This document shows positions 1,786-14,144 of a DNA stretch of 16,900 nt, piece by piece. Origin of the DNA: an uncultured bacterium (GTDB lineage Bacteria > Oederibacteriota > PGYV01 > CAWJRG01); NCBI GenBank assembly GCA_963845185.1, contig CAWJRG010000003.1, forward strand, positions 1 to 16,900, in the 5' to 3' direction. A program made the position numbers and the translations under genes. The number at the start of each line of letters is the position of its first letter. Position 1 is the stretch's first letter. The notes beneath the pieces were generated by a model, which was given only the letters and a program-made list of their open reading frames with translations, was not told the DNA's origin and did no database searches.

Positions 1786-1926
1786 ATAAGTTCGTATATT
1801 GTATATTATACGAATATTTGGGTTTAGGGGATTTTCCCAATGTTTATCGTACAAATCTTTGGTTTAAAAGAATTTGTGCAGCATTTTATACGAAATTATA
1901 TTTGCATGATATATTTTGTATGAATT
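1786..1926. repeat. Left array of dif/lox/res-like palindromic sites (one strong, three degenerate)
   Basis: AGTTCGTATAT-TGTATA-TTATACGAATA at 1789-1816; related right arms at 1847-1857 (TCGTACAAATC), 1886-1896 (TTATACGAAAT) and 1916-1926 (TTGTATGAATT). Confidence 0.65.
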
Positions 1927-1939
1927 CTGCGGGAACCCC
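1902..1939 (-). mobile_element. Partial Tn3-family terminal inverted repeat (outer end at 1939, element to the left)
   Basis: Reverse complement begins GGGGTTCCCGCAGAATTC, like the outer 18 bp of Tn501/Tn1721-type IRs; the inner half is degenerate. Confidence 0.55.
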
Positions 1940-2014
1940 ATCATAAGCTTCTTTAAACTTCCGCCGATATAAAAAACGGCCGCATATTTTACCGTCCTGT
2001 CCTTTAATCATTTT

Positions 2015-2052
2015 GGGGTGGACGCAGAAAACGGACAATTCCGCAATACTTA
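2015..2052 (+). mobile_element. Tn3-family terminal inverted repeat (left end)
   Basis: GGGGTGGACGCAGAAAACGGACAATTCCGCA...; the first 15 bp are the exact inverse of 2873-2887, and CAGAAAACGGA is as in Tn21-type IRs. Confidence 0.7.
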
Positions 2053-2262
2053 TACAGACCGAAATTTTTTACCTTTCCTGTTATCACAATAAGTATTCAG
2101 GTCTTTTAACGAAAGGTCAAAATTTACCCCTTCAACAACAAGGTTTCTTCCATTAATAAGTTGATAACCCCCCCTGTTATTGTAATGTTGTTTATCGATG
2201 GCTTTACAAACACGTATTCCTCTTTTTCTAAGAAATCTTTTGATTGCAGACACTGTTCTCAT
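2050..2262 (-). CDS. Small basic hypothetical protein (70 aa)
   Basis: ORF with AAAGGA upstream of ATG; protein-like composition (NNRGGYQLINGRNLVVEGVNFDLSLKDL). Confidence 0.55.
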   Translation of the reverse strand: MRTVSAIKRFLRKRGIRVCKAIDKQHYNNRGGYQLINGRNLVVEGVNFDLSLKDLNTYCDNRKGKKFRSV

Positions 2263-2541
2263 TTTTAATATCCTTTACTTTTTTTTCTTTTAGGTATTCA
2301 CGCTTCTCCGGTTGCTTTCATAATCTCACTTTGCAGGGTTTATTAAAGAATTCATCCGCGCAAGCCTTCTTTTCTTCTAGTTGCGCTTCACTATTGCCCT
2401 CATTTTACGCTTCGAAATCATACTGTCCATAATATTACCACCTTTTTTTTTATTTTTATTTGCCTCTCATTAATTGTTTTTTATGTTGTTTTTTGCGTTT
2501 TTTAAATTCTTTTTTTTTCTTTTTCCATTCATTTTTATTTT

Positions 2542-2727
2542 TCATTTTTTTAACCTCATTTTCTTTTTAGTTTTTAACTTCCTTTGGTTTGTATCTGACA
2601 TTGATTTCACTTTTGTGGTAAAAAATTCACAGTTTATTTTAGGTTTTGTAATATTTATTCCACATGAATTAATATTTTCAAGTCTTGTTATTTTTTTATT
2701 ATTAAATATGCAGTTTTCGCATTTCAT
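2542..2727 (-). CDS. Small Cys/Lys-rich hypothetical protein (61 aa)
   Basis: ORF track; CxxC plus two further Cys and a basic tail; weak RBS. Confidence 0.35.
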   Translation of the reverse strand: MKCENCIFNNKKITRLENINSCGINITKPKINCEFFTTKVKSMSDTNQRKLKTKKKMRLKK

Positions 2728-2849
2728 TATCGCTGCTCACTTTCTCTTTAGTTTTTTACTTCCTGTAATTAGAGTTAGGAATCCCTTACCCGGGAAAAAA
2801 TAATGGCTCCATGGGGCGTATGCGAAGCCGTTTAGGGAGTATACAAATC

Positions 2850-2887
2850 CTTGGCGTACTATTTTTTCCAAATTCTGCGTCCACCCC
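2850..2887 (-). mobile_element. Tn3-family 38-bp terminal inverted repeat (right end A)
   Basis: Reverse complement GGGGTGGACGCAGAATTTGGAAAAAATAGTACGCCAAG; 31/38 to the Tn501-type IR as I recall it (GGGGGAACCGCAGAATTCGGAAAAAATCGTACGCTAAG). Confidence 0.85.
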
Positions 2888-2927
2888 TATAACGGCTGTA
2901 AAATCCGGATTATCTTAAATGCGGGCA

Positions 2928-2962
2928 AAAAGGCATAGAATCATAACGGTTCTATGCCTTTT
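2928..2962. terminator. Intrinsic terminator, probably bidirectional
   Basis: AAAAGGCATAGAA-9 nt-TTCTATGCCTTTT, a perfect 13-bp stem with A/T tails, 20 nt after the stop of the 30-aa ORF. Confidence 0.75.
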
Positions 2963-2981
2963 CAAAATCAAAACAACGTTT

Positions 2982-3074
2982 TTACTTCGCTTTTGCTGCA
3001 GGAGTTGTTCCTATCGCCTTAACTTTTACGGCTGCCTTTTTCGCTTTTTTGGCTTTCTTTATTATTTTTTTCAT
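2982..3074 (-). CDS. 30-aa Lys/Ala-rich basic peptide
   Basis: Manual translation MKKIIKKAKKAKKAAVKVKAIGTTPAAKAK*; strong RBS AAGGAGGT 7 nt upstream; followed by a terminator. Confidence 0.7.
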   Translation of the reverse strand: MKKIIKKAKKAKKAAVKVKAIGTTPAAKAK

Positions 3075-3246
3075 CTAAGTTACCTCCTTTCTTTTAAACA
3101 GATTCATGCACAATTTATTCTTGCGATTAATTGTTAATTAACTATCCACAACGGCATAATTAAGCGGATAAGTGTTGCCTTTTTCTTTAACTATCGTGTG
3201 GCTTACATCAGGCACGGATGATTATCTTATATCCCGTATTTCTTCT

Positions 3247-3366
3247 TTACTTCTTTTGCCATATATTTTTCACCTTCTTGTAAATTTCCTCTGCGAACTT
3301 TTTGATTTTCTCTTGGAATGCCTCAAGAGCAGGCTTGCCCTGCTGTTTTTTCACTTCTTCTGCCAT
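3247..3366 (-). CDS. 39-aa helical charged peptide, possibly a truncated DUF2934-like gene
   Basis: MAEEVKKQQGKPALEAFQEKIKKFAEEIYKKVKNIWQKK*; RBS AAGGATGGTGA; another frame continues MAKEVKKKYGI*. Confidence 0.5.
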   Translation of the reverse strand: MAEEVKKQQGKPALEAFQEKIKKFAEEIYKKVKNIWQKK

Positions 3367-3396
3367 GATTCTTTCACCATCCTTTCAATGAGATTT

Positions 3397-3434
3397 TTTA
3401 GCGTACTATTTTTTCCGAATTCTGCGTCAATCCC
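3397..3434 (-). mobile_element. Tn3-family 38-bp terminal inverted repeat (right end B)
   Basis: Reverse complement GGGATTGACGCAGAATTCGGAAAAAATAGTACGCTAAA; 3401-3434 is 31/34 identical to 2854-2887; 31/38 to the recalled Tn501-type IR. Confidence 0.85.
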
Positions 3435-3440
3435 AACGTA

Positions 3441-3668
3441 TCAGTCTGCCACGTTTATTTTTTTTATGTCAAACTCCGGGTATTTAAGCCTGCCTTTCAA
3501 AAACTCTTTCGTGGCAATATCGGTTGGTTTCAGTTTTCTGTCTTCGTCCTCGATTTCTTCCGGGTTTTCCCTTATGTATTTTGCCCGGCTCGAGACCGCC
3601 AGCACGGCAGCGTATTTGTTCGGAATTTTTTTCTCGATATCGTCTCTTGTAAATTCCATTTTTTTCAT
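3441..3668 (-). CDS. rpoZ: RNA polymerase omega subunit homologue
   Basis: 75 aa with omega-type motifs KIPNKYAAVLAVSSRAKYI and KPTDIATKEFLKGRL; RBS GGAGGT. Confidence 0.8.
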   Translation of the reverse strand: MKKMEFTRDDIEKKIPNKYAAVLAVSSRAKYIRENPEEIEDEDRKLKPTDIATKEFLKGRLKYPEFDIKKINVAD

Positions 3669-3811
3669 TTACCTTACCTCCAGTCTTGTGTTGTTGTTTT
3701 ATTTTTCACGCGCCACTATATCTTCAAGACGCACGACGCTTTTCTTTAAATATCTGTTTACAATAATATAATTATTACTTTTTTCATTCTTTAAAGCCTC
3801 CTTTAAACAAA

Positions 3812-4666
3812 CTACAAATACTCCGGTGTAAATTTTTGAATCCTGTTATTATTCATGTCTGTAACATACACGTTACCGCTGCTGTCTACTGCTAATCCAT
3901 TAGGATCATAAAACTGCCCGTTGTCGCTTCCTAAACTACCCCATTGAGTTATATATGTTCCTGTACTGCTAAATTTTTGTATTCTGTTATTATCCGTGTC
4001 TGTAACATAAACGCTTCCGCTGTTGTCTACTGCTACTCCTTCAAGATACTCAAACTGCCCGTTGCCGTCTCCAAAACCACCCCATTGTGTTATATAGTTC
4101 CCGGATGAATCGAATTTTTGTATTCTGTTATTAATCGAGTCCGCAACATAAACGTTTCCGCTGTTGTCTACTGCTACTCCAGAAGGACAATCAAATTGCC
4201 CGTTGTCGCTTCCTTTACTACCCCATTGTGTTATATATGTGCCTGTACTGTTAAATTTTTGTATTCTGTTATTATCCGTGTCTGTAACATAAACGTTACC
4301 GCTGCCGTCTACTGCTACTCCATAAGGAAGTTTAAACTGCCCGTTGCCGTCTCCAAAACCACCCCATTGTGTTATATAGTTCCCGGATGAATCGAATTTT
4401 TGTATTCTGTTATTATTCCAGTCTGCAACATACACGTTTCCGCTGCTGTCTACTGCTATTCCAACAGGAAGTTTAAACTGCCCGTTGCCGTCTCCAAAAC
4501 TACCCCATTGAGTTATATATGTTCCTATACTGCTAAATTTTCGTATTCTGCTATGCCTGTCTGAAACATACACATTACCGCTGCTGTCTACTGCTATTCC
4601 AGAAGGCCAAAAAAATTGCCCCTTGCCGTTTCCTTTAATACCCCATGAAGATAAATTTTTTTTCAT
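3812..4666 (-). CDS. NHL-repeat six-bladed beta-propeller protein
   Basis: Six ~47-aa repeats of the form GQFxxPxGVAVDSSGNVYVxDxxNNRIQKFxSxGxYITQWG; no signal peptide. Confidence 0.92.
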   Translation of the reverse strand: MKKNLSSWGIKGNGKGQFFWPSGIAVDSSGNVYVSDRHSRIRKFSSIGTYITQWGSFGDGNGQFKLPVGIAVDSSGNVYVADWNNNRIQKFDSSGNYITQWGGFGDGNGQFKLPYGVAVDGSGNVYVTDTDNNRIQKFNSTGTYITQWGSKGSDNGQFDCPSGVAVDNSGNVYVADSINNRIQKFDSSGNYITQWGGFGDGNGQFEYLEGVAVDNSGSVYVTDTDNNRIQKFSSTGTYITQWGSLGSDNGQFYDPNGLAVDSSGNVYVTDMNNNRIQKFTPEYL

Positions 4667-4675
4667 AGTTTCCGC

Positions 4676-4810
4676 CTACTTTGCCGTACTCTTTTTTTCC
4701 TTTTGTTTCGATTTTTCTGTCTGCTATAAAGTAATCATATAAGTTTTATAAACCAAAAAAATACCATCAATCCTGCCAACATATAATTATCCCCTGGATT
4801 ATTAACATTA
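4676..4810 (-). pseudogene. Degraded 3' fragment of the membrane-protein gene at 5739..6122
   Basis: Aligns with 5739-~5870 (shared tttttctgtctgctataaagtaatcatat and ataccatcaat), but has indels and lacks the 5' part. Confidence 0.75.
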
Positions 4811-4856
4811 CAATAATTTTTATAACCTGCTATTCAAACCAATATTTAACATTCAT

Positions 4857-5729
4857 CTATGGTTTAAATTTTTGTATTCTGTTATTACCCGCATCTGCAA
4901 CATACACGTCTCCACTGCTGTCTACTGCTACTCCTTCGGGTTGAATAAACTGCCCGTTGTCGGTTCCCATACTGCCCCATTGAGTTATATAGTTCCCGGA
5001 TGAATCGAATTTTTGTATTCTGTCATTACCATATTCTGCAACATACACGTTTTCGCTGCTGTCTACTGCTACTCCTTCGGGTTGAATAAACTGCCCGTTA
5101 CCGCTTCCACTAATACACCCAGGAGCACCCCATTGAGTTATATATGTGCCTGTACTGCTGAATTTCTGGATTCTGCTATTACTATCGTCTGAAACATACA
5201 CGTTACCGCTGCTGTCTACTGCTACTCCAGAAGGACAAAAAAACTGTCCGCTGCCGCTTCCTTTACTACCCCATTGAGTTATATATGCGCCTGTGCTGCT
5301 GAATTTTTGGATTCTGCTATTACCCTGGTCTGCAACATACACGTCTCCGCTGCTGTCTACTGCTACTCCAACAGGAAGTTTAAACTGCCCGTTGCCGCTT
5401 CCAGAACTACTCCATGAACCACCCCATTGAGTTATATATTTGCCTGTGCTGCTAAATACTTGGATTCTGTTATTATTCGTGTCTGAAACATACATGTTAC
5501 CACTGCTACCTATTGCTACTCCAACAGGTAAATTAAACTGCCCATTGCCGGTTCCTTTACTACCCCATTGAGTTATATATGCGCCTGTGCTGCTGAATTT
5601 CTGGATTCTGCTATTACCCTGGTCTGCAACATACACGTCTCCGCTGCTGTCTACTGCTACTCCTGCGGGAAAATTAAACTGCCCGTTGCCGGTTCCCATA
5701 CTACCCCATGAAGATGGATTTTCTTTCAT
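4857..5729 (-). CDS. NHL-repeat six-bladed beta-propeller protein (paralogue of 3812..4666)
   Basis: Six NHL repeats, with the same start context (GTAGGCGGAAACTATGAAA) as the other copy. Confidence 0.92.
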   Translation of the reverse strand: MKENPSSWGSMGTGNGQFNFPAGVAVDSSGDVYVADQGNSRIQKFSSTGAYITQWGSKGTGNGQFNLPVGVAIGSSGNMYVSDTNNNRIQVFSSTGKYITQWGGSWSSSGSGNGQFKLPVGVAVDSSGDVYVADQGNSRIQKFSSTGAYITQWGSKGSGSGQFFCPSGVAVDSSGNVYVSDDSNSRIQKFSSTGTYITQWGAPGCISGSGNGQFIQPEGVAVDSSENVYVAEYGNDRIQKFDSSGNYITQWGSMGTDNGQFIQPEGVAVDSSGDVYVADAGNNRIQKFKP

Positions 5730-5738
5730 AGTTTCCGC

Positions 5739-6122
5739 CTACTTTGCCGCACTTTCTTTTCCTTTTGTTTCAATTTTTCTGTCTGCTATAAAGTAATCAT
5801 ATAGGTTCCATAAACCCAAAAATACCATCAATACTGCCAACACATAATTATACCAGGGATAAGAAACATTAATATTGCCCCACCCAAATGCCGCGAATCC
5901 AAACAGCACAAGCGCCAATAAAAATTCATCGATTGCATTGATTAATTTTATTTTGGGAGACTTCGAGACAAAAGAAACAATACATACTATGATACTGGCT
6001 ATGCCTAGTGCAATTAATAAACAACCCACGACTGTATCGTGTATAATTAAAAAAACACCGGATAGTAAGATGCCTAGCCCAAATACACCAGTAAAAAATT
6101 TTGACATCAATGACTTAACCAT
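5739..6122 (-). CDS. Small integral membrane protein, about 4 TM helices
   Basis: Four hydrophobic segments; RBS AGGAGGT; 9 nt before the NHL gene start. Confidence 0.8.
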   Translation of the reverse strand: MVKSLMSKFFTGVFGLGILLSGVFLIIHDTVVGCLLIALGIASIIVCIVSFVSKSPKIKLINAIDEFLLALVLFGFAAFGWGNINVSYPWYNYVLAVLMVFLGLWNLYDYFIADRKIETKGKESAAK

Positions 6123-6456
6123 TTGTATACCTCCTAAATTATATTACTCGAAAATTTTCTCGATTTTGCCGGCAAAACGCGAAGGAGTTATGTACAACCG
6201 GCCTAGAATTTACCGCTCTTTTCTTTTCCAAAAAAAACCCCATTATATTTTAAACTATATACCGCAGACAGTTATTCAGATAGACCTTTATTCCGCTTTT
6301 TATGGCCTTTAATCGCAGGAAAAACAGGTGTTAAAACGAATGTAAAACGGATCAGAATTGCCGTATTTACTTCCCGGGAGGACAGCACATTTTTGTGAAT
6401 CTTGTTATTCGTGTTCCTGAGAATCCATATATGATTTTAAATTATCAAATGAAAAT

Positions 6457-6660
6457 GTGGAGCCTCCCGCCCCTACGGCAGGCGGGGATTTTCGCGGAGC
6501 GGGATTAATATATTTTTTAAATTAACCTTACTCTATGCTTTTGCCATAGTGGAACCCCGCCGACAGGAGTCGGGGGCTCCTTTAAAAACCACCGGAGGTT
6601 ATTATAAGTTCCCTCCGGAAAGGTTTAATTCATCCTCCAGCCAAAGCCGGGGGATTTCTT
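6457..6660. mobile_element. GC-rich multi-hairpin element resembling IS200/IS605 ends (non-autonomous remnant)
   Basis: Four hairpins at 6465-6488, 6551-6580, 6592-6618 and 6632-6655. On the minus strand it starts AGAAATCCCCCGGCTTTGGCTGGAGGATGAA, and two hairpins are each followed by TCCAC. Confidence 0.5.
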
Positions 6661-6666
6661 TCTAGA

Positions 6667-7749
6667 TTAAACTAACGCGGCATTCAGCTCCATCATAAGT
6701 TCATCTATAAGTTCCTTTACGCTCACAATCTCGTTTATCCTGAACGCGTTCGCCCCGCAGAATGCAAACCCGTTGTCAAACAGTCCCCTCTGCGCGTTAA
6801 TAAGCGCCAGCGCAATGCAATACGGTGTGTTCTCAAAGTCACAGGTCCTGATGCAGTGGTACGGGCACTTGACCGGTATCCTCATGCCGCTTTCCACCTG
6901 CTCAAGGAATTTATTCCTGATGGCCCTGCCGGGCATCCCAACCGGCGATTTTATTATGACTATGTCCTCTTCTTTTGCGTCAATGTATTTCTGCTTAAAC
7001 TTTTCGTCGGCGTCGCACTCGTGCGTCGCCACAAAACGCGTGCCCATCTGTACCCCGGCAGCGCCGAGCGCCATTATTTTTGCTATGTCCGCGCCCGTGT
7101 AAATGCCGCCGGCGGCTATCACAGGTATCTTACGGCCGTATTTTTCCTCAAACGGTTTCACCGCTTCGATAACGTCGGTCACCAGCTTTTCAAGCGGGTA
7201 CTCATCTATACGGTCCAATTCATCGTACGAAAATCCGAGGTGACCTCCTGCCTTTGGCCCCTCTACCACAATCGCGTCAGGTGTACAGTTGTATTTTTTA
7301 TCCCAGACTTTCATGATGACAGACGCACACCTGCCCGATGAGACTATCGGCACGAGTTTTACGTCTGATTTTTTTTCCATTTTCAGCTTGGGCAGGTGCA
7401 AAGGAAGCCCTGCGCCCGATATAATAATATCAATCTCCTCATCTATGGAAGCATCGACAAGGTCGTCATAGTTGCTTGCCGCCACCATTATGTTTACCGC
7501 AAGTATTCCTTTTGTCATTTCCCTGGCTTTCCTGATTTCCTTGCGTATGCCGTGCTTGCTCGCCTCCAGGTAGTTTGTGTTAGCGTCAAGTTCCTTTAAA
7601 AAAATGCCTATCGAAGCGATGGTACCGATACCGCCATGGTTTGCCACTGCCGCGGCAAGTCCTGCAAGCGATATGCCTACTCCCATCCCGCCCTGAATGA
7701 TCGGAATTTTGGAAATTAAGTTTCCTATCGTAAGTCCTTTAATATCCAC
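6667..7749 (-). CDS. Nitronate monooxygenase-family flavoprotein, FabX/UfaA-like with a Cys cluster
   Basis: PIIQGGMGVGIS, SGAGLP, VVEGPKAGGHLG, IAAGGI, GVQMGTRF, SPVGMPGRA and CPYHCIRTC...YCI. Likely start is GTG at 7749 (RBS AAGGAG), not 7839. Confidence 0.88.
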   Translation of the reverse strand: MDIKGLTIGNLISKIPIIQGGMGVGISLAGLAAAVANHGGIGTIASIGIFLKELDANTNYLEASKHGIRKEIRKAREMTKGILAVNIMVAASNYDDLVDASIDEEIDIIISGAGLPLHLPKLKMEKKSDVKLVPIVSSGRCASVIMKVWDKKYNCTPDAIVVEGPKAGGHLGFSYDELDRIDEYPLEKLVTDVIEAVKPFEEKYGRKIPVIAAGGIYTGADIAKIMALGAAGVQMGTRFVATHECDADEKFKQKYIDAKEEDIVIIKSPVGMPGRAIRNKFLEQVESGMRIPVKCPYHCIRTCDFENTPYCIALALINAQRGLFDNGFAFCGANAFRINEIVSVKELIDELMMELNAALV

Positions 7750-7781
7750 CGAAAATCTCCTTTTGCACCTATTTTTTATCT

Positions 7782-7980
7782 GGGGTAGACACAGAATTCG
7801 CACATAATTGTACGTTAAGGATCCATAAATCAATATCATAAATTACGGGAATAGCCGCCATCTCAAAAATTTATTGCCCACCGTATTTATTACTATTTTG
7901 TAACCCTATATATTACAATAAGTTTTTTTAGTAGTTTATACGCTTAGTGTACTGTTTTTTCCAAATCGTGAGCTGACTCC
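7782..7980. mobile_element. 199-bp Tn3-derived miniature inverted-repeat element
   Basis: Left IR 7782-7819 GGGGTAGACACAGAATTCGCACATAATTGTACGTTAAG; right IR 7943-7980, reverse complement GGAGTCAGCTCACGATTTGGAAAAAACAGTACACTAAG. Both are 38 bp ending TAAG; no ORF inside; no perfect 5-bp target duplication. Confidence 0.75.
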
Positions 7981-8010
7981 TATAAACATGCATGGCGTGA
8001 ATATATAAAA

Positions 8011-8205
8011 TCAAACTTTCTTATCTTCCCCACTATAGATTAAAGCATTATCTATCCATTTTTCCAGTATTTCTTTTTTAAAACGCCATACTTTTGAAAT
8101 CTTAATCCCAGGCAGTTTCCTTTCATGAACAAGTTTATATATAGTGACGGGTTTAACTTTTAAAAAATCAGCCACATCCTTAATTGTCATTAATTCTTCC
8201 TGCAT
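8011..8205 (-). CDS. Excisionase-like (HTH_17/MerR-type) DNA-binding protein
   Basis: LMTIKDVADFLKVKPVTIYKLVHERKLPGIKISKVWRFKKEILEKWI. Confidence 0.88.
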   Translation of the reverse strand: MQEELMTIKDVADFLKVKPVTIYKLVHERKLPGIKISKVWRFKKEILEKWIDNALIYSGEDKKV

Positions 8206-8225
8206 TTATCCCTCAATATATTTTA

Positions 8226-8606
8226 TTAGTTGCGACTTGGACTTTTGTGTGTTTCGTTTATAAATTGTTCCAGGAATTTTTGATCTTCTTCTCTTAGAGT
8301 AACAAAACTCAATCCAATTTCATATAACCCAACCGAACTTTCAAAATTGCACCATCTAACCTCGCAAAAAGCTTTAATTATCCCGTTATTCGAATCTGTT
8401 AAATTTATTTCAACGCGCAATATAGTCCCCTCTTCTGCTTTTTGGGGCATCAAAAGACATACACCGCCTTTGGATATGTTTTTTATTTTCCCTTTCTCAT
8501 AACTAGAATTAATTTTATCCAAATCGTTGCTGAGCATTTTATACTTGGTTTCTCTCACAATATTAATGCGCTCGGTTAAGCGTTTTTCTATAAAGTCTGT
8601 TTGCAT
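8226..8606 (-). CDS. Stand-alone PilZ-domain protein (c-di-GMP receptor)
   Basis: RxxxR (KRLTER) and NxSxxG (NISKGG) motifs, plus CEVRW and IGLSF; start at ATG 8606 with RBS GGAGG. Confidence 0.88.
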   Translation of the reverse strand: MQTDFIEKRLTERINIVRETKYKMLSNDLDKINSSYEKGKIKNISKGGVCLLMPQKAEEGTILRVEINLTDSNNGIIKAFCEVRWCNFESSVGLYEIGLSFVTLREEDQKFLEQFINETHKSPSRN

Positions 8607-8640
8607 AATAAATCGCCTCCACAAATGATTTTCAGTGATA

Positions 8641-8657
8641 AACAAGGATTGTGCCAA
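8641..8657 (-). promoter_or_regulatory. Possible sigma54 promoter for the PilZ-HTH pair
   Basis: TTGGCACAATCCTTGTT fits TGGCAC-N5-TTGC except for GT at -12. Confidence 0.35.
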
Positions 8658-9024
8658 ACTTAAATATATATAAACTGGTATCCGTCATATCAAAACCAAC
8701 TAACCTATTTTCATTATTAATTATCCCCCCAATGATGTTTAAGTCAAGAACAATAGTTTTAAAGGAAAGTTGCAATTTAATTAAAATAAGATATACTTAT
8801 TATTGGCCGGGGATGCAGTGCCCTTATGTTTCACCAAATGTGTGGTTGATACCCCCCAATTCCCCTCCAAACTCTTAACCACGCAGTCTCCGGGCATTTA
8901 TTTTTTTACATGCCTATTGCAGATTAGTTTAACGGAATTTTAGCGTGAGCCAAGGGAATGAGGGATAAAGAGATGGGTTAAAAGCAGTTCTCTTTAAAAA
9001 GGCATTAAAAAATTAAAGCCGATT

Positions 9025-9279
9025 TCATTTACCTTGAATTTTCTTAATTTCATCATATGCTTGTTTAAGTCCCAATTTTCCAGCTTTATTTAAATCTTTA
9101 AGCGCGCCTTGCTTGTCGCCTAAGATATTTTTGGCAAGCCCTCGGTTGTAATAAGCTTCCGCATCCTTCGATTTAAGTTTTATTGCTTCGTCAAAATCTT
9201 TAACCGCAGCCTTGAAGTGGCCTATCATGGCGTTATGCTCACCAGCATCTAGATATTGCATAACCTTATTTGATGGCAT
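9025..9279 (-). CDS. Small TPR-repeat protein
   Basis: AVKDFDEAIKLKSKDAEAYYNRGLAKNILGDKQGALKDLNKA; RBS AGGAG. Confidence 0.85.
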   Translation of the reverse strand: MPSNKVMQYLDAGEHNAMIGHFKAAVKDFDEAIKLKSKDAEAYYNRGLAKNILGDKQGALKDLNKAGKLGLKQAYDEIKKIQGK

Positions 9280-9339
9280 GAATTCTCCTAATTAAATTTT
9301 AAAATATGTTAGAACAGGAAAGGAGAAAAAGCAAGAAGT

Positions 9340-9522
9340 TTTCAATATAACGTATATTATTTATGATGTTGCCGGTGTCCGCTTTCCTGGTATTCTAATT
9401 TTCAGGGGTATAAAAATATCTGTCAGAGGGGTATGGGCAAAGTACGTATATAGTATTTTATACGAAATATGGTTTTAAGTGGAATTTACGTACAATGTAT
9501 ATTATACGAATGTTTGGTTTTA
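9340..9522. repeat. Right array of dif/lox/res-like palindromic sites
   Basis: AGTACGTATAT-AGTATT-TTATACGAAAT (9441-9468), TTTACGTACAA-TGTATA-TTATACGAATG (9485-9512) and a weaker TTTCAATATAA-CGTATA-TTATTTATGAT (9340-9367). 9496-9522 matches 1800-1826 at 25/27. Confidence 0.65.
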
Positions 9523-9586
9523 ATTATATTAAATAGTTTAAGCTTAAATCTTTAGGAGTAATTTTTTAGGTCTTAAAAACCTTGCA

Positions 9587-10603
9587 TTAAAATTTACCTA
9601 CTACAGACAAATACTGCAGAGGAGTTAATTCACTATTGACCCATGCGTAATCCAATCCGATAAAGTACCATCTTATACTCGCTCCAAGCGTCCAGCTGGG
9701 TTGCTGCTGCAGCCCCTGCGATATTTCACTGTAATTCTCAATTCCGCCTCTTATTCCTATCATCTTGTTCCACCAGTACTCGGCTCCAACGTGGACTAGA
9801 GTCTGGTATTCTGTATCAATGTCAGCTGCAACTATAAACTCGCTTTTCATTTGTTTTAAAAAATCCAGAGGTATATTATAAGCAAGCCCTGACTTTACGT
9901 TTATAGCAACCTGTTCAGGCCCGCCTTGAAAGCTGCCTACCGCAGCCCAATTCTCCACAGTATATATGTCCTGGAAGTTTACGCCGAGCGACAATCCTTT
10001 TAACGCGCTGGAAAGCGTGGCCATATTCAGGTAAAGCCCGGCGTCCAAGCCGCCGCCGCTGTAATTTATTGTTGCCAGGCTGGATGCTCCTGTAGAACCA
10101 TTTATTACCGTCGCCGGGTAATTCCCAAGCAGTATCTTCCCTGATAACCCGATTGAAAAACCCTCAATAAGATTTCTTGCGTATGAAAGATAAATAGTGT
10201 TATCAGCGTTTTCCTCATTGCCTAAAAGAGTTCCAGCCGCATCTGTTATTTGTATGTTTCCGATTCCCTGGTTTAACCATGCAACGCCAAATGCGCCGAT
10301 ATCATTGCTTACGTTATAAACAAGGTTGACGTAAGTATACTTGGTGTCAATCTGGTTGTTGAAGCTCTGCGTCAATTTTACGTCAGATACTTCCACCCCA
10401 TTGACGTTCACAAGTCCTGCCGGATTCCAGTATGATGTGGAAGCATCATCTGCCACAGCCACAAACGCGCCTCCCATTCCAAGTGCTCTCGCGCCAACTC
10501 CGATTGCCATTGATTCGCCCGCATATTCATCTGCCGAATATAAACTAATTGCAAAAAACATAAACGCAACAGCTAATAAACCTGTTTTAATCATTAACTT
10601 CAT
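9587..10603 (-). CDS. PorV/PorQ (UPF0164)-like outer-membrane beta-barrel protein
   Basis: Signal peptide, GVGARALGMGGAFVAVADDASTSYWNPAGL motif, amphipathic beta-strands, C-terminal Phe; RBS AGGAGG. Confidence 0.85.
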   Translation of the reverse strand: MKLMIKTGLLAVAFMFFAISLYSADEYAGESMAIGVGARALGMGGAFVAVADDASTSYWNPAGLVNVNGVEVSDVKLTQSFNNQIDTKYTYVNLVYNVSNDIGAFGVAWLNQGIGNIQITDAAGTLLGNEENADNTIYLSYARNLIEGFSIGLSGKILLGNYPATVINGSTGASSLATINYSGGGLDAGLYLNMATLSSALKGLSLGVNFQDIYTVENWAAVGSFQGGPEQVAINVKSGLAYNIPLDFLKQMKSEFIVAADIDTEYQTLVHVGAEYWWNKMIGIRGGIENYSEISQGLQQQPSWTLGASIRWYFIGLDYAWVNSELTPLQYLSVVGKF

Positions 10604-10768: not shown

Positions 10769-13700
10769 TTACTTCAGTATCAAGATTTTAGTTGTCGCAG
10801 AACTGGTCTGGCCATGCGATTTCACAATAATAACTGCGATGTAAGCTCCGCTGGCCAAATTCGCTCCTCTTATGTCTTTCTCGTTCCAATATAATAAGTG
10901 GCTCCCTGACGATCCTATGGAAGCTCCTTCAAAGGTCTTGGTCCATATCAAACGGCCCGCTGTTGTATATACCTTCATGGTGATTTGTGCGTCCGGATCC
11001 ACCAAATTGGAACCATTTGATACTGACTTGGCACTAACACTGGATGCTGTAGTTCCGCTTCCTGATACGCTAACCGACACATTGACTCCGTTGCCGGTTG
11101 AAGGATTCGGATAAGCAAGCGCGCTGGCTGTCGTCAATGCCGCAGAAGAAGCAGATGGCTCCTGCCCCCATACAAGCGACCCGTTCAAATATCCTGTTAT
11201 TTGCGTCCACTTTGTGAAACTCGTATAAGCAACATAGCTCCAGTCATTGCTCTGTATCATGTTGCTCCAGTCGCTCAAATTGAACCTGCTCTGGATCTCT
11301 ATTGCCTGCCCGGGCTGCAGCACAAGGCCTCCAGTAAATCTGTAGCTTATATAATCGGTCTGTCCTCCAAGAGTGGTTGGGACAACCGAGGTTTGCACAT
11401 CCCCGGTAACCGAGCTTCCTGATGTCAGTAACCCTGCCCAATCAACCCATGCCTGCACTGACTGGCCGGTGCAGTCGCAGTTGAACCAGTAACGCACTTC
11501 TGCGTTATTTAAATTCAAGGCACTGGTTCCCGTATTTACAACCTCAATCTGCGGATGCGGGCTGTTCGTAGAGTTTGTTGTCACTCCCGACAGTAAATAC
11601 AGGGTCAATGCGCCTGATGCCGGCGGAACTGTAGTAGGCGTAAAGGTTGGGACTGTTGTGTTTGTCGGCACTGGCGTCGTAGGTGTAGCTGACGGCGTTA
11701 TCGGTGTATATGTTGGAACTGGTGTCGTAGGTGTTGCCGACGGTGTTATCGGTGTATATGTAGGAACTGGTGTCGTAGATGTTGCCGATGGTGTTATCGG
11801 CGTATTTGTCGGCATCGGCGTTGTTGGCGTCGCTGACGGCGTTATCGGCGTATTTGTTGGCACCGGTGTTGTAGGTGTTGCTGACGGCGTTATTGGTGTG
11901 CTTGTCGCCGCGGCCTGCACCGAAACCGTGAAAACTTCCGTGGACTTTAGCCCACAGGCATTCGTGTACGTAGCCGTGAAGGTGTTTGTGCCCACGCTCA
12001 AGGCGATATTGTCAATTTCCCGTGTGGTGGAAGTGAAGCCGTTAGGGCCGCTCCAACTCCAGGAGCCGCCGGTTAATGGCTGCGGACCCAGGTTCACTGT
12101 AGAGGCTGTCGAGGTTACCGAAGCACTATTGGTCTGCTGCCATGCCCCACCGTTCACTTGAATATATGGGGTGATGGCGGTGGAAACGCAGGAAGTGGAG
12201 GTCGGCACAGGCGTTGTAGGCGTTGGTGATGGTGTTATTGGCGTGCTCGTCGGAACCGGCGTTGTCGGTGTTGCTGACGGCGTTATTGGCGTATTTGTCT
12301 TTGTGAATGTATATGTGGGCGTATTTGTCGCTGCGGCCTGCACCGAAACCGTGAAAACTTCCGTGGACTTTAGCCCACAGGCATTCGTGTACGTAGCCGT
12401 GAAAGTGTCGGTGCCCACGCTCAAGGGAATATTGTCAATTTCCCGCGAGGTTGAGGTGAATCCGTTAGGGCCAGTCCAGCTCCAGGAGCCGCCTGTTAAT
12501 GGCTGCGGGCCAAGGTTAACTGTGGAAGAAGTAGAAGTTACCGAAGCACTGTTGGTCTGCTGCCATGCCCCGCCATTCACCTGGATATATGGCGTAATGG
12601 GTGTCGTAGCGCATGGAGTGGCTGTGCTTGTCGGAGTAAAGGTAGATGTCGGCACCGGAGTTGTTCCGTTTGTCTGGGTGAAACTGTATGATTCAAAATT
12701 AAAAAGCGTGCCTGATCCCCCGGTAAATACAAAAAATATGTCATGAACTCCTGACGCGCCGGTTATTGCGCATGATACATTTGTCCATGTCTGTGTCCCG
12801 CCTGTATTTGGCACTGCGCACGTGCCGATAAGCGTGCCTGTCGTGCTGTCCAGGTGTATTTGTATACTTCCTCCGCTGACCGTCCCGCGACGCGGGCGCT
12901 AAAAGCCGGAAGCCCCGGTCCCAAAATCAAGGTTCCTTACCTGTGTCCAGTAACCGTTTTGAATATTCGTAACATTCATTCCGCCTTCGGAGCATACTTT
13001 GTCTGTATTCCAGACTCCTTGGCCATCGTTACGGCTTTTACTGTAGTATAAGGGTTAAAATTCTTGAGTGCGGCCACGCCTCCGTTGTCGGCGTCACGAC
13101 CGCAATCGTACCGTCCGAGTTAAAGTAAAGCTTGTCAAGACAAACGCTTCTCTGGTATATGCCGTTGCAGTTACCAAGTTTTAAGTTTGACAGCGATCTG
13201 TCATGATAAGCTATGTAGTAGTTGGAACCTATATTTACTATCGAAGCGTGATTGTTGTTACCGCAGTTATTCGGTGGGTTATAGAGGATCGTCCCCCGGT
13301 GCGTAAAGCCGGTCATGGGGTTGCTGCTGGTCATGTAATCGATACTGGCATCTGGTGATGCTGAAAAATCCGTCGAGTAGGAAAAATAATAGGTGCCGTT
13401 GTATTTGTTCATGAAAGGGGCCTCAAAATACCGGGGTGCGTCGATCGTGACGGCAGACCCGTTCACGCTTATCATGTCCGAGTTTAATTTTATAACCCTG
13501 GCATTACCGGGCCCGCCGCCGCCGAAATAGCAATAAGCCTGGCCGTCGTCGTCAATAAAGGCCGCCGGGTCAAAAATATACGTCATGCCGCTGCAGCCCG
13601 GCGTGCTGGAGGTGATAAGCGCGTGGCCAAGCGGGTCGGTATAAGGGCCTGTCGGGCTCGTGCTCCTCAATACTCCTACGCTGCCCCCGCCATTGCCGAA

Positions 13701-14041
13701 ATACACATAATAATATCCGTTCCTGTATACGCAGTCCGGAGCATATGTCAGGCCCGCCCACGATGTGTCCGACGCCTTGATCGGATTACGCCCTCGTCGG
13801 TCCAGTTCACAAGGTCGTCGGATGAAATAAGCGTAACATCAGTTATATTATAACCTGTTGCGCCGGTTTGATCATGTGAACAGTATATATACATCCTGTT
13901 GTTAAACCAGCACGCAGTCGGGTCAGCGGTGTATTTTTGATAAATCAGCGGGTTATAGGCAAAAATTGCCGCGCTAAAAAAAATAAGCGGCAGTATGGCG
14001 AAAAAACACTCTAAAATAATCTTTTTTATTTTTTCTGGCAT
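10769..14041 (-). CDS. Secreted GH43 arabinofuranosidase/xylosidase-like enzyme: GH43-CBM6-two X modules-Pro/Thr linker-CBM3-C-terminal secretion-like domain (frameshifted in this sequence)
   Basis: Joins ORFs 13748..14128, 13038..13706 and 10769..12814: signal peptide, NPLIYQKYTADP, IFDPAAFIDDDG, RYFEAP, NNNHASI, YQRSVCLDKL; CBM6 (NLDFGTG..., VPNTGGTQTW, HDIFFVF); CBM3 (EVRYWF, QSNDWSY, LVWGQEP); CTD AYPNP...KILILK. Start at ATG 14041 chosen from RBS spacing. Frameshifts near 13770, 13080 and 12880-13000. Confidence 0.85.
11650..11905 (-). repeat. Tandem 48-bp repeats encoding a TPITPSATPTTPVPT(N/Y) linker
   Basis: About five 16-aa units in the translation; similar units at ~12195-12330 and ~15020-15410. 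Confidence 0.85.
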
Positions 14042-14092
14042 TTTCATACCTCCCTCACCGTACATATAAAATCCAATTTGTTTAAAAATTTC

Positions 14093-14121
14093 AGCCCCCC
14101 GGTATAGCCGGGGGGCTTTTT
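14093..14121. terminator. GC-rich hairpin between the two large CAZyme genes
   Basis: AGCCCCCCGG-TATAG-CCGGGGGGCT, a perfect 10-bp stem; the T tail is on the plus strand and is weaker on the coding strand. Confidence 0.65.
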
Positions 14122-14144
14122 CATTCAAATCTTAAAATCCAAAT

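Follow-up and report, generated by a model that had tools for sequence, protein, structure and literature searches.

By the Escherichia coli convention, the first-written arm of a dif site is bound by XerC and the last-written arm by XerD. In the single-recombinase Xer systems (XerH/difH, XerS/difSL and XerA), one enzyme serves a site with two like arms. Integrative mobile elements exploiting Xer (IMEX), such as the CTX and TLC phages and the gonococcal island, integrate at dif by means of the host Xer enzymes; their foreign DNA is flanked by directly repeated dif look-alikes, sometimes in arrays that combine intact with decayed sites. Gene-moving dif look-alikes in many copies are, to our knowledge, so far understood in detail almost exclusively from plasmids of Acinetobacter, in which they disseminate antibiotic resistance. 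The dif modules (pdif, xrs) of Acinetobacter plasmids and chromosomes are the nearest described system to the repeated 28-bp palindromes treated here. The palindromes were found in a 16.9-kb stretch of DNA (the window) that makes up the entire contig C3 in the 3.5 Mb genome (11 contigs, named here C1 to C11) of an uncultured bacterium. Comparison of the sequences indicates that they are probably Xer-type recombination sites derived from the dif site of the lineage itself.

Three reports on Acinetobacter describe many 28-bp dif-like sites lying beside accessory genes, including toxin-antitoxin pairs; the sites are said there to be more palindromic than dif, and their sequence sets which partners are compatible (PMC12907356, PMC11705084, PMC7399989). 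As in those modules, several 28-bp sites with an 11-6-11 layout bracket accessory genes in the present case, and the recombinase would be supplied in trans. In Acinetobacter each site has one XerC and one XerD arm, whereas both arms are of the XerC-side type here. Flanking sites in Acinetobacter mostly stand in opposite orientation (C/D, D/C) on Rep_3 plasmids, whereas here they are mostly direct and lie on chromosomal contigs of an uncultured phylum. Also unlike Acinetobacter, the sites have two discrete kinds of centre, often side by side, and a dedicated Xer-like recombinase gene is linked to them in three genomes. A full-text literature search for Goldbacteria together with Xer found no report. 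The nine publications found on dif-like sites and modules dealt mostly with Acinetobacter, and otherwise with Azospirillum plasmids, a Photobacterium plasmid and, in a review, archaeal tyrosine recombinases. Within the limits of these searches, the family appears to be undescribed so far.

A repeat search of the window recovered a 34-nt unit in three copies, at 1793, 9445 and 9489. The 8-mer TATACGAA was present five times against 0.68 expected, a count reached by none of 200 shuffled sequences, and the 16-mer TGTATATTATACGAAT was identical at 1800-1815 and 9496-9511, on the same strand and 7696 bp apart. A preliminary description of this DNA had reported palindromes, repeated in one orientation and sharing the 16-mer at 1800 and 9496, at both junctions of a 7.7-kb segment within a cluster of carbohydrate-active enzyme (CAZyme) genes, and this family is real. 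The array unit had been given as 8-N8-8; the repeat itself was upheld, but its unit is 28 bp, with an 11-bp arm, a 6-bp centre and an inverted 11-bp arm. What had been described as a left array (1786-1926) consists of one intact site (B1) and two to three decayed copies, and the right array of two intact sites (A and B2) 44 bp apart, with at most a half-site remnant at about 9347-9370. The coordinates and sequences of all these are given in Table 1. The decayed A-type site of the left array contains a TATACGAA match at 1887 and gave a weak nhmmer hit at 1880-1897. B1 and B2 are identical in the centre and in the first 10 bases of the right arm, and their left arms are unlike at 4 of 11 positions.

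Both groups of sites have close copies elsewhere in the genome. The block at 1789-1930 is 85% identical to C10:688669-688810, which opens with an intact A-type site, and a site pair on C8 (C8:35420-35493) shares 93% identity over 74 bp with the A and B2 pair (window 9442-9515). The sites are not special to the two junctions; seven further places in the genome carry the same family. In all, there are about 11 members at nine places, ten of them clear and one a short form. Membership was taken from a listing of all TATACGAA contexts, a small nhmmer profile and pattern searches, which gave an agreeing picture. The site pattern matched 12 times in this genome against 0 for the reversed control; these comprise ten distinct members, a second match to the C8 palindrome, on its opposite strand, and a sequence (C10:27814) that is unlike a member. 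The bare 8-mer TATACGAA occurs 110 times in the genome against about 107 for a random 8-mer, and only the long form defines the family. A loose search with CGTATA-N8-TATACG was discarded, being swamped by threonine/proline-linker repeats.

The family is common to several families of the same order, which belongs to candidate division FCPU426. Sites were found in 10 of 24 genomes of the order (numbered here with a G, the present genome being G000), with control matches at about zero. Among 40 sites from the ten genomes, the arm cores are invariant or near-invariant, with the consensus ATTTCGTATAA / centre / TTATACGAAAT. The centres fall into two discrete classes, namely AGTATT (type A) and TGTATA or TTTATA, once TTAATA (type B). 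The 6-bp spacing within this collection was imposed by the search pattern; the listing of TATACGAA, which is free of any such constraint, has the 6-bp spacing in all members save the short form at C11:63770. A and B centres are often adjacent, forming a pair with a distance of 42-44 bp, and neighbouring sites stand in direct orientation in the window and in the relatives G019, G009 and G023. The site at C11:66297 has an A-type left arm and flank joined to the centre and right arm of B2, and sites of the form ATT...AAC accompany ATT...AAT and GTT...AAC sites in relatives. Such hybrid-looking sites would fit an exchange at the border between arm and centre, although they are only suggestive.

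The cumulative GC skew of the large contigs places the origin at about C10:776 kb, where its single minimum lies, and the terminus at C9:732-734 kb, where it has its single maximum. Apart from the C8 palindrome, only C9:734892 matches the pattern ATAA-N6-TTATACGAA exactly in this genome. With the sequence ACTTATCATAA GATAGA TTATACGAACT, this second match is situated some 2 kb away from the skew maximum. Ten or more relatives, from nine families, each have a single copy of a near-identical sequence. In G019, which is assembled in three contigs, the copy is found at C2:776498, which coincides with the maximum of the skew (776-780 kb) over the 400 kb examined. On the other strand the G019 copy reads ACTTCGCATAA TGTATA TTATGTTAACT and is identical at 24 of 28 positions to the E. 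coli dif printed in PMC3025954; for the copy of the present genome the identity is 21 of 28. Because it lies at the GC-skew maximum in two genomes and matches E. coli dif at 24 of 28 positions, this single-copy sequence is the probable dif of the lineage.

The left arm of B1 matches the XerC-side arm of the host dif at 10 of 11 positions. Its right arm matches the inverted XerC-side arm at 9 of 11 and the XerD-side arm at 6 of 11. The type-B centre TGTATA is the centre of both the G019 dif and the E. coli dif, and a type-B site of G007 (ATTTCGCATAA TGTATA TTATGCGAAAT) agrees with the G019 dif at 16 of its first 17 positions. Because of these arm identities, each site can be described as the left half of dif with a centre, followed by a second, inverted copy of the same arm. 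The sites therefore resemble chromosomal dif of the E. coli type in the 11-6-11 layout, the XerC-side arm and the type-B centre. Chromosomal dif is single-copy and located at the terminus, whereas the sites of the window are multi-copy, dispersed and devoid of an XerD-side arm, and therefore are not dimer-resolution sites. With about 11 copies at nine places, some of them 45-90 kb from the origin, none coincides with the chromosomal dif. IMEX, in contrast, sit at the chromosomal dif itself, and the window is on a different contig from dif.

As stated in the preliminary description, the window has no recombinase gene (none of the 17 ORFs scanned matched one), and its proposal of an enzyme acting in trans has candidates elsewhere. 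The genome has three PF00589 matches, on C5, C6 and C8. Two are XerC (338.2 bits against an NCBIfam cut-off of 335.15) and XerD (350.2 bits against 329.6), both on contigs other than C8. The third is Xer-like and falls under every named NCBIfam cut-off, the best model being of XerA type (174 bits against 220). A search for recombinases beside further copies of the motif, as had been suggested, led to this third gene, which lies on C8, 1.5 kb from the site pair. Its catalytic residues (R134, K157, H224, R227, H250 and Y259) are conserved with those of an aligned orthologue. Orthologues with 57-58% identity are present in 3 of the 24 genomes, and in all three the gene is 0.3-1.5 kb from a site. 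An additional Xer-like gene on a conjugative element, XerT of the Helicobacter TnPZ, is described in PMC3325230. Unlike XerH, XerS, XerA and XerT, the third recombinase misses all named NCBIfam cut-offs, and its target is putative. The extra recombinases of G023, G021 and G019 have no sites nearby, and that of G019 is not orthologous to the third recombinase. A search of viral contigs with the recombinase alignment gave 13 loci, all with at most 28% identity and none an orthologue.

Contig C8 itself (46 kb, 39.9% GC) carries a RepA-like gene, two ParA/ParB pairs and a type IV coupling protein, together with RadC, a serpin, Fic, a CHAT protease and transposases of the IS3 and IS21 types. A KilA-N gene lies within its type I-C CRISPR-Cas set, which is complete. 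C8 has the look of mobile DNA, resembling a plasmid or an integrative and conjugative element.

It is extremely improbable that the palindromes are lox-type 13-8-13 sites, serine-resolvase res sites, repetitive extragenic palindromes (REP) with their associated transposases (RAYT) or integron attC sites. Their general palindromic form would suit such elements, and in one relative a Y1_Tnp gene lies 0.9 kb from a site. Against this stand the 11-6-11 symmetry and the conservation that follows it, which overturn the earlier comparison with loxP; none of the three PF00589 matches was recognised as Cre-like. The res-site comparison fails likewise, as the genome, which is 99.4% complete, has no match to the serine recombinase family PF00239. 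REP/RAYT was rejected on the lack of any match to the Y1 transposase family PF01797 in the genome. The attC reading was rejected as well: all three tyrosine recombinases scored 104-162 bits with integron-integrase models, against a cut-off of 265, and the intervals between sites hold many genes. The third comparison made in the preliminary description, with dif in an 11-6-11 reading, was borne out; the sites are of the Xer/dif kind, with both arms of the XerC-side type.

Binding and cleavage of the sites, and any recombination between them, excision of the 7.7 kb included, we infer along the following lines. The XerC-side half of dif would have been kept, and the XerD-side arm would have been swapped for a second, inverted XerC-type arm. 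A tyrosine recombinase provided in trans would bind the two like arms, and strands would be exchanged where the arms meet the 6-bp centre. Candidates for this enzyme are the third Xer-like recombinase, encoded on mobile-looking DNA, and host XerC, with or without XerD. Only sites sharing the same centre would be partners, and gene blocks would be inserted, lost or rearranged at the sites, as proposed for dif modules. A wider proposal is offered tentatively, as a possibility that we do not favour: an undescribed, chromosome-wide gene shuffling in FCPU426 at dif-derived sites with two XerC arms, whose mutually exclusive A and B centres would lie next to each other and form a docking platform with two addresses, served by the dedicated Xer-like enzyme or by XerC alone.

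Several observations weigh against the sites being active Xer sites derived from dif. An XerD-type arm is absent from them. Seven of the ten site-bearing genomes have no detected orthologue of the third recombinase, and G014 (13 site matches) and G009 (6) have only two PF00589 matches each; in such genomes either the housekeeping enzymes act, or the sites are relics, or the element was left unbinned. The opposite orientation of the sites to their neighbour genes would be compatible with a transcription-related role as well. The arms show co-variation, with 21 doubly changed cells against 9.3 +/- 2.2 after shuffling, the number 21 being reached in none of 500 shuffles. A folded single strand may be of importance here, and shared ancestry of the copies can equally yield co-variation. 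For the similar multi-copy Xer sites of Acinetobacter plasmids, PMC11705084 reports cointegration between molecules, and in its assays the DNA between two sites was not excised. In the public sequencing run X1, depth was zero at both arrays (bins 1693-2820 and 9025-9588) and no joint between 1.8 and 9.5 kb was found; the run had a tenth of the sampled words and assembled only into short contigs of related organisms. Finally, a clean site-to-site inversion was considered for two congeners, G021 and G017, and was rejected, as there is no site at one of the two breakpoints. In these genomes (loci L058, G021:C87, and L078, G017:C84) a 0.73-kb block, which comprises the DUF5678 and aspartyl-protease genes and ends in a site, has reversed its orientation with respect to the recombinase gene and to the other flank. 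As a rearrangement near a site, with the other breakpoint at most 15 bp from it, the inversion counts in favour of Xer activity, and G017 has an additional 65-aa ORF between site and recombinase.

Orientation and co-variation would also be expected if the palindromes formed RNA hairpins on the gene strand that end or stabilise transcripts, the likeness to dif being incidental. The sites are located downstream of genes, in an orientation opposite to that of their main neighbour genes, at 8 of 9 places in this genome; the opposite orientation also holds at most places in the relatives, and the minus-strand fold of 1781-1830 (-6.5 kcal/mol) has a z-score of -5.96. The folds are weak, AT-rich and without a U-tract, however, with -6.5 to -9.2 kcal/mol for the left site, and the right pair gave z = -0.10 on the plus strand and a modest z = -2.13 on the minus strand. 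Scans for sigma-70 promoters and terminators found none at an intact site. Moreover, hairpins would account neither for loops kept in two discrete classes nor for the identity with dif, which reaches 16 of 17 positions over arm and centre in the case of the true dif of a relative, nor for the recombinase gene linked to a site in 3 of 3 cases. This explanation is therefore considered improbable.

A protein might also dock at the sites without strand exchange, the palindromes being XerC-specific sites that organise the chromosome or operators for a transcription factor. Symmetric arms, a consistent orientation relative to genes and GC skew, and the retention of sites in genomes that lack the third recombinase would all be compatible with docking. 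Operators would not be expected at distances from gene starts that vary from 158 to about 850 bp in this genome, beside genes that share no functional theme here and vary in content among relatives. Nor does docking explain why asymmetric centres are kept in two classes, and sites are also found near the origin (C10:689-732 kb, the origin being at about 776 kb). Docking is accordingly given little credence, and recombination at dif-derived Xer sites remains the preferred reading.

The interval between the sites (Table 1) has a GC content of 33-42% over most of its length, compared with 50-56% in the flanks. Its NMO/FabK-like gene (NMO) is single-copy in this genome and conserved across the order, and in 4 of 4 relatives examined it is found elsewhere. 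In G019, G009 and G017 it lies within a block collinear with C9:252-269 kb of this genome, and in G008 between two genes that adjoin at C10:518.7 kb here; its neighbourhoods vary by family of the order, and no sites lie beside it in the four relatives. The rpoZ gene has further copies at C10:68086-68310 and C10:613127-613351, with 89% and 84% amino acid identity to the window copy, against one copy in each of five relatives. The copy at C10:613 kb may be the ancestral one, because it is preceded by a 186-aa ORF that is tentatively taken to be gmk. The HTH_17 gene is paired with a PilZ gene at 8226-8657, and a paralogue of the pair is present at C9:949 kb (87% DNA identity, 89% at the amino acid level). 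Parts of 2316-3795 have further copies at C10:67.8-68.8 kb and C9:649-650 kb. Because of the position of the NMO gene in the relatives, the extra rpoZ copy and the HTH_17-PilZ paralogue, the interval is non-ancestral at its present position. The HTH_17 domain, of the excisionase family, is a generic one, and its gene is the only candidate mobility gene in the interval. The patchwork fits gene traffic around the sites, without making the interval a unit.

The preliminary description had seen in this interval a cassette integrated or excised by a recombinase in trans. Xer-type sites and candidate enzymes in trans are indeed present, but the single-cassette claim is doubtful, as the interval contains the order-conserved, single-copy NMO gene. 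It is rather unlikely that B1 and B2 delimit a single mobile cassette of 7.7 kb, which would integrate from and excise as a circle through its like-centred sites. B1 and B2 are direct repeats with identical centre and 16-mer, the interval differs from its CAZyme flanks in content and GC, its genes are paralogous or relocated, and an excisionase-family gene is at hand. On the other hand, excision would take the only NMO/FabK-like gene of the genome, run X1 gave no junction reads (at zero depth), and mobility genes as such are missing. In addition, with the sites so dispersed every pair encloses some DNA, B1 and B2 have unlike left arms, and the directly repeated plasmid sites of Acinetobacter cited above failed to excise. 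A metagenome scan with the PorV-like protein found five loci, which were orthologues of the paralogous C1:283-285 kb or distant relatives, none with sites. None of these loci therefore offers an empty-site comparison, and all available relatives are too distant to supply an empty site.

If the sites are dif-derived Xer sites, the borrowing of the chromosome-unlinking machinery for gene traffic would be an older and wider idea, here with a host from a peat-bog phylum. They would also offer a natural test of whether a Xer enzyme is able to act on a site with two like arms, and a compact pair of recombinase and site with two addresses. If the two-address reading is true as well, this would be a natural counterpart of the heterospecific lox sites used for cassette exchange. 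The analysis also locates the replication origin, terminus and dif of the lineage.

The neighbours of the sites in this genome and the genes bracketed by sites in relatives are listed in Table 1. In G000 as well as in G009, a Fic gene is directly adjacent to a site pair. An empty site was sought for the one-gene module of G019, and no syntenic locus was found in five relatives.

Table 1. Sites of the family, probable dif sequences and genes of the window and of other site-bearing places.
Feature	Genome and contig	Position	Strand	Details
GH30 gene	G000 C3	3-1430		
Sigma-70-like promoter	G000 C3	1565..1593	-	TTGACA-17-TATACT, 11/12; best match upstream of GH30, ~200 bp from B1
Intact site B1	G000 C3	1789..1816	+	AGTTCGTATAT / TGTATA / TTATACGAATA; pattern match, 0 mismatches; family member C3:1789
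Decayed second unit copy	G000 C3	1832..1870	+	44-bp register after B1; reading against 9482-9522
Decayed A-type site	G000 C3	1869..1896	+	Right arm TTATACGAAAT intact at 1886-1896; left part ~3 bp shorter
Degenerate site-like sequence	G000 C3	1899..1926	-	3 mismatches; weak, chance possible
Interval between sites	G000 C3	1817..9440		Patchwork of paralogous and relocated genes: small lysine-rich ORFs, extra rpoZ, two NHL-repeat proteins, membrane protein, NMO/FabK-like, HTH_17 + PilZ, small TPR
rpoZ paralogue	G000 C3	3441..3668	-	PF01192; one of three copies
NMO/FabK-like flavoprotein	G000 C3	6667..7839	-	PF03060, E = 9e-58; FabK model 160 bits, below cut-off 453
HTH_17/excisionase-family protein, 64 aa	G000 C3	8011..8205	-	PF12728, E = 7e-15; TIGR01764 42.1 bits, cut-off 28.8
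Intact site A	G000 C3	9441..9468	+	AGTACGTATAT / AGTATT / TTATACGAAAT; family member C3:9441
Intact site B2	G000 C3	9485..9512	+	TTTACGTACAA / TGTATA / TTATACGAATG; family member C3:9485
PorV/PorQ-family gene	G000 C3	9587-10603		
Family member	G000 C4	22240		Neighbour: GH9 gene
Family member	G000 C6	2506		Neighbours: DNA methylase with MutH-like nuclease
Family member pair	G000 C8	35419 and 35463		Neighbour: Fic
Family member	G000 C10	688669		Neighbours (689 kb): OmpA-family gene, phosphatase
Family member	G000 C10	731884		Neighbours (732 kb): glutamate synthase small subunit, MiaB-like gene
Family members	G000 C11	63766 (short form) and 66297		Neighbours: glutamine synthetase III, group-II-intron-like reverse transcriptase, MBL-fold gene
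Probable chromosomal dif	G000 C9	734885-734912		
Probable chromosomal dif	G019 C2	776496-776523		
Site pair	G009			Brackets MNT/HepT toxin-antitoxin pair
Two A sites, then B site	G019			One DUF1214/DUF1254 gene between the A sites
Site pair	G023			Brackets ArsR-type regulator with flavodoxin/ferredoxin protein
Site pair	G014			Brackets PilZ, DUF4912, cyclase

At least six copies exist of the reverse-transcriptase element (RVT_1) at C11:62500-63460, which is probably a group II intron; relative to the C11 copy, five have an identity above 99% and one of 89%. One of the copies ends about 300 bp from the short-form site C11:63766.

Nearly all genes of the window are on the minus strand. Apart from those in Table 1, it contains genes with CBM and GH43 domains. 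The GH43 gene is in two ORFs (13038-13706 and 13748-14128, covering profile positions 90-288 and 3-60), which points to either a broken gene or an assembly error. The window had no match in Rfam at gathering scores and none in a tRNA scan. The stretch that contains the promoter before the GH30 gene (1468-1606) recurs in front of a paralogous gene, at C10:5350-5488. Both contig ends (1-80 and 16337-16900) lie within genes that have threonine/proline-linker repeats, and a paralogous CAZyme cluster is found at C10:2.4-5.5 kb and C10:663.7-666.5 kb, with its pieces in a different order. Because of this different arrangement, the contig ends are probably assembly breaks at repeats.

The region at 2262-3441 within the interval has several short lysine/glutamate-rich ORFs with good ribosome-binding sites and no long ORF, and a clean terminator hairpin stands behind one of the short ORFs, which encodes a 30-aa basic peptide (2982-3074). 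Another small repeat family, GGGG..GCAGAATTyGG..AAAATAGTAC when read on the minus strand, occurs at 2851-2887, 3398-3434, 7944-7980 and 1912-1945, with an inverted copy at 2015-2038 and another at C10:688810. It lies just upstream of small lysine-rich ORFs (e.g. the 39-aa ORF at 3247-3366) and of the NMO gene, and may be a shared promoter or leader. The GCAGAATT element was considered as a general promoter and rejected, since only about 5 of its 136 occurrences belong to this repeat family. The family does not extend as a motif over the whole genome. The stretches 6548-6671 and 8660-8762 are copies of two short interspersed repeats that are abundant, with at least 20 and at least 8 copies elsewhere. 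On C9, a 68-bp repeat is arranged in tandem with a 100-bp period (C9:916586-917153) and is related to a dispersed repeat of dozens of copies.

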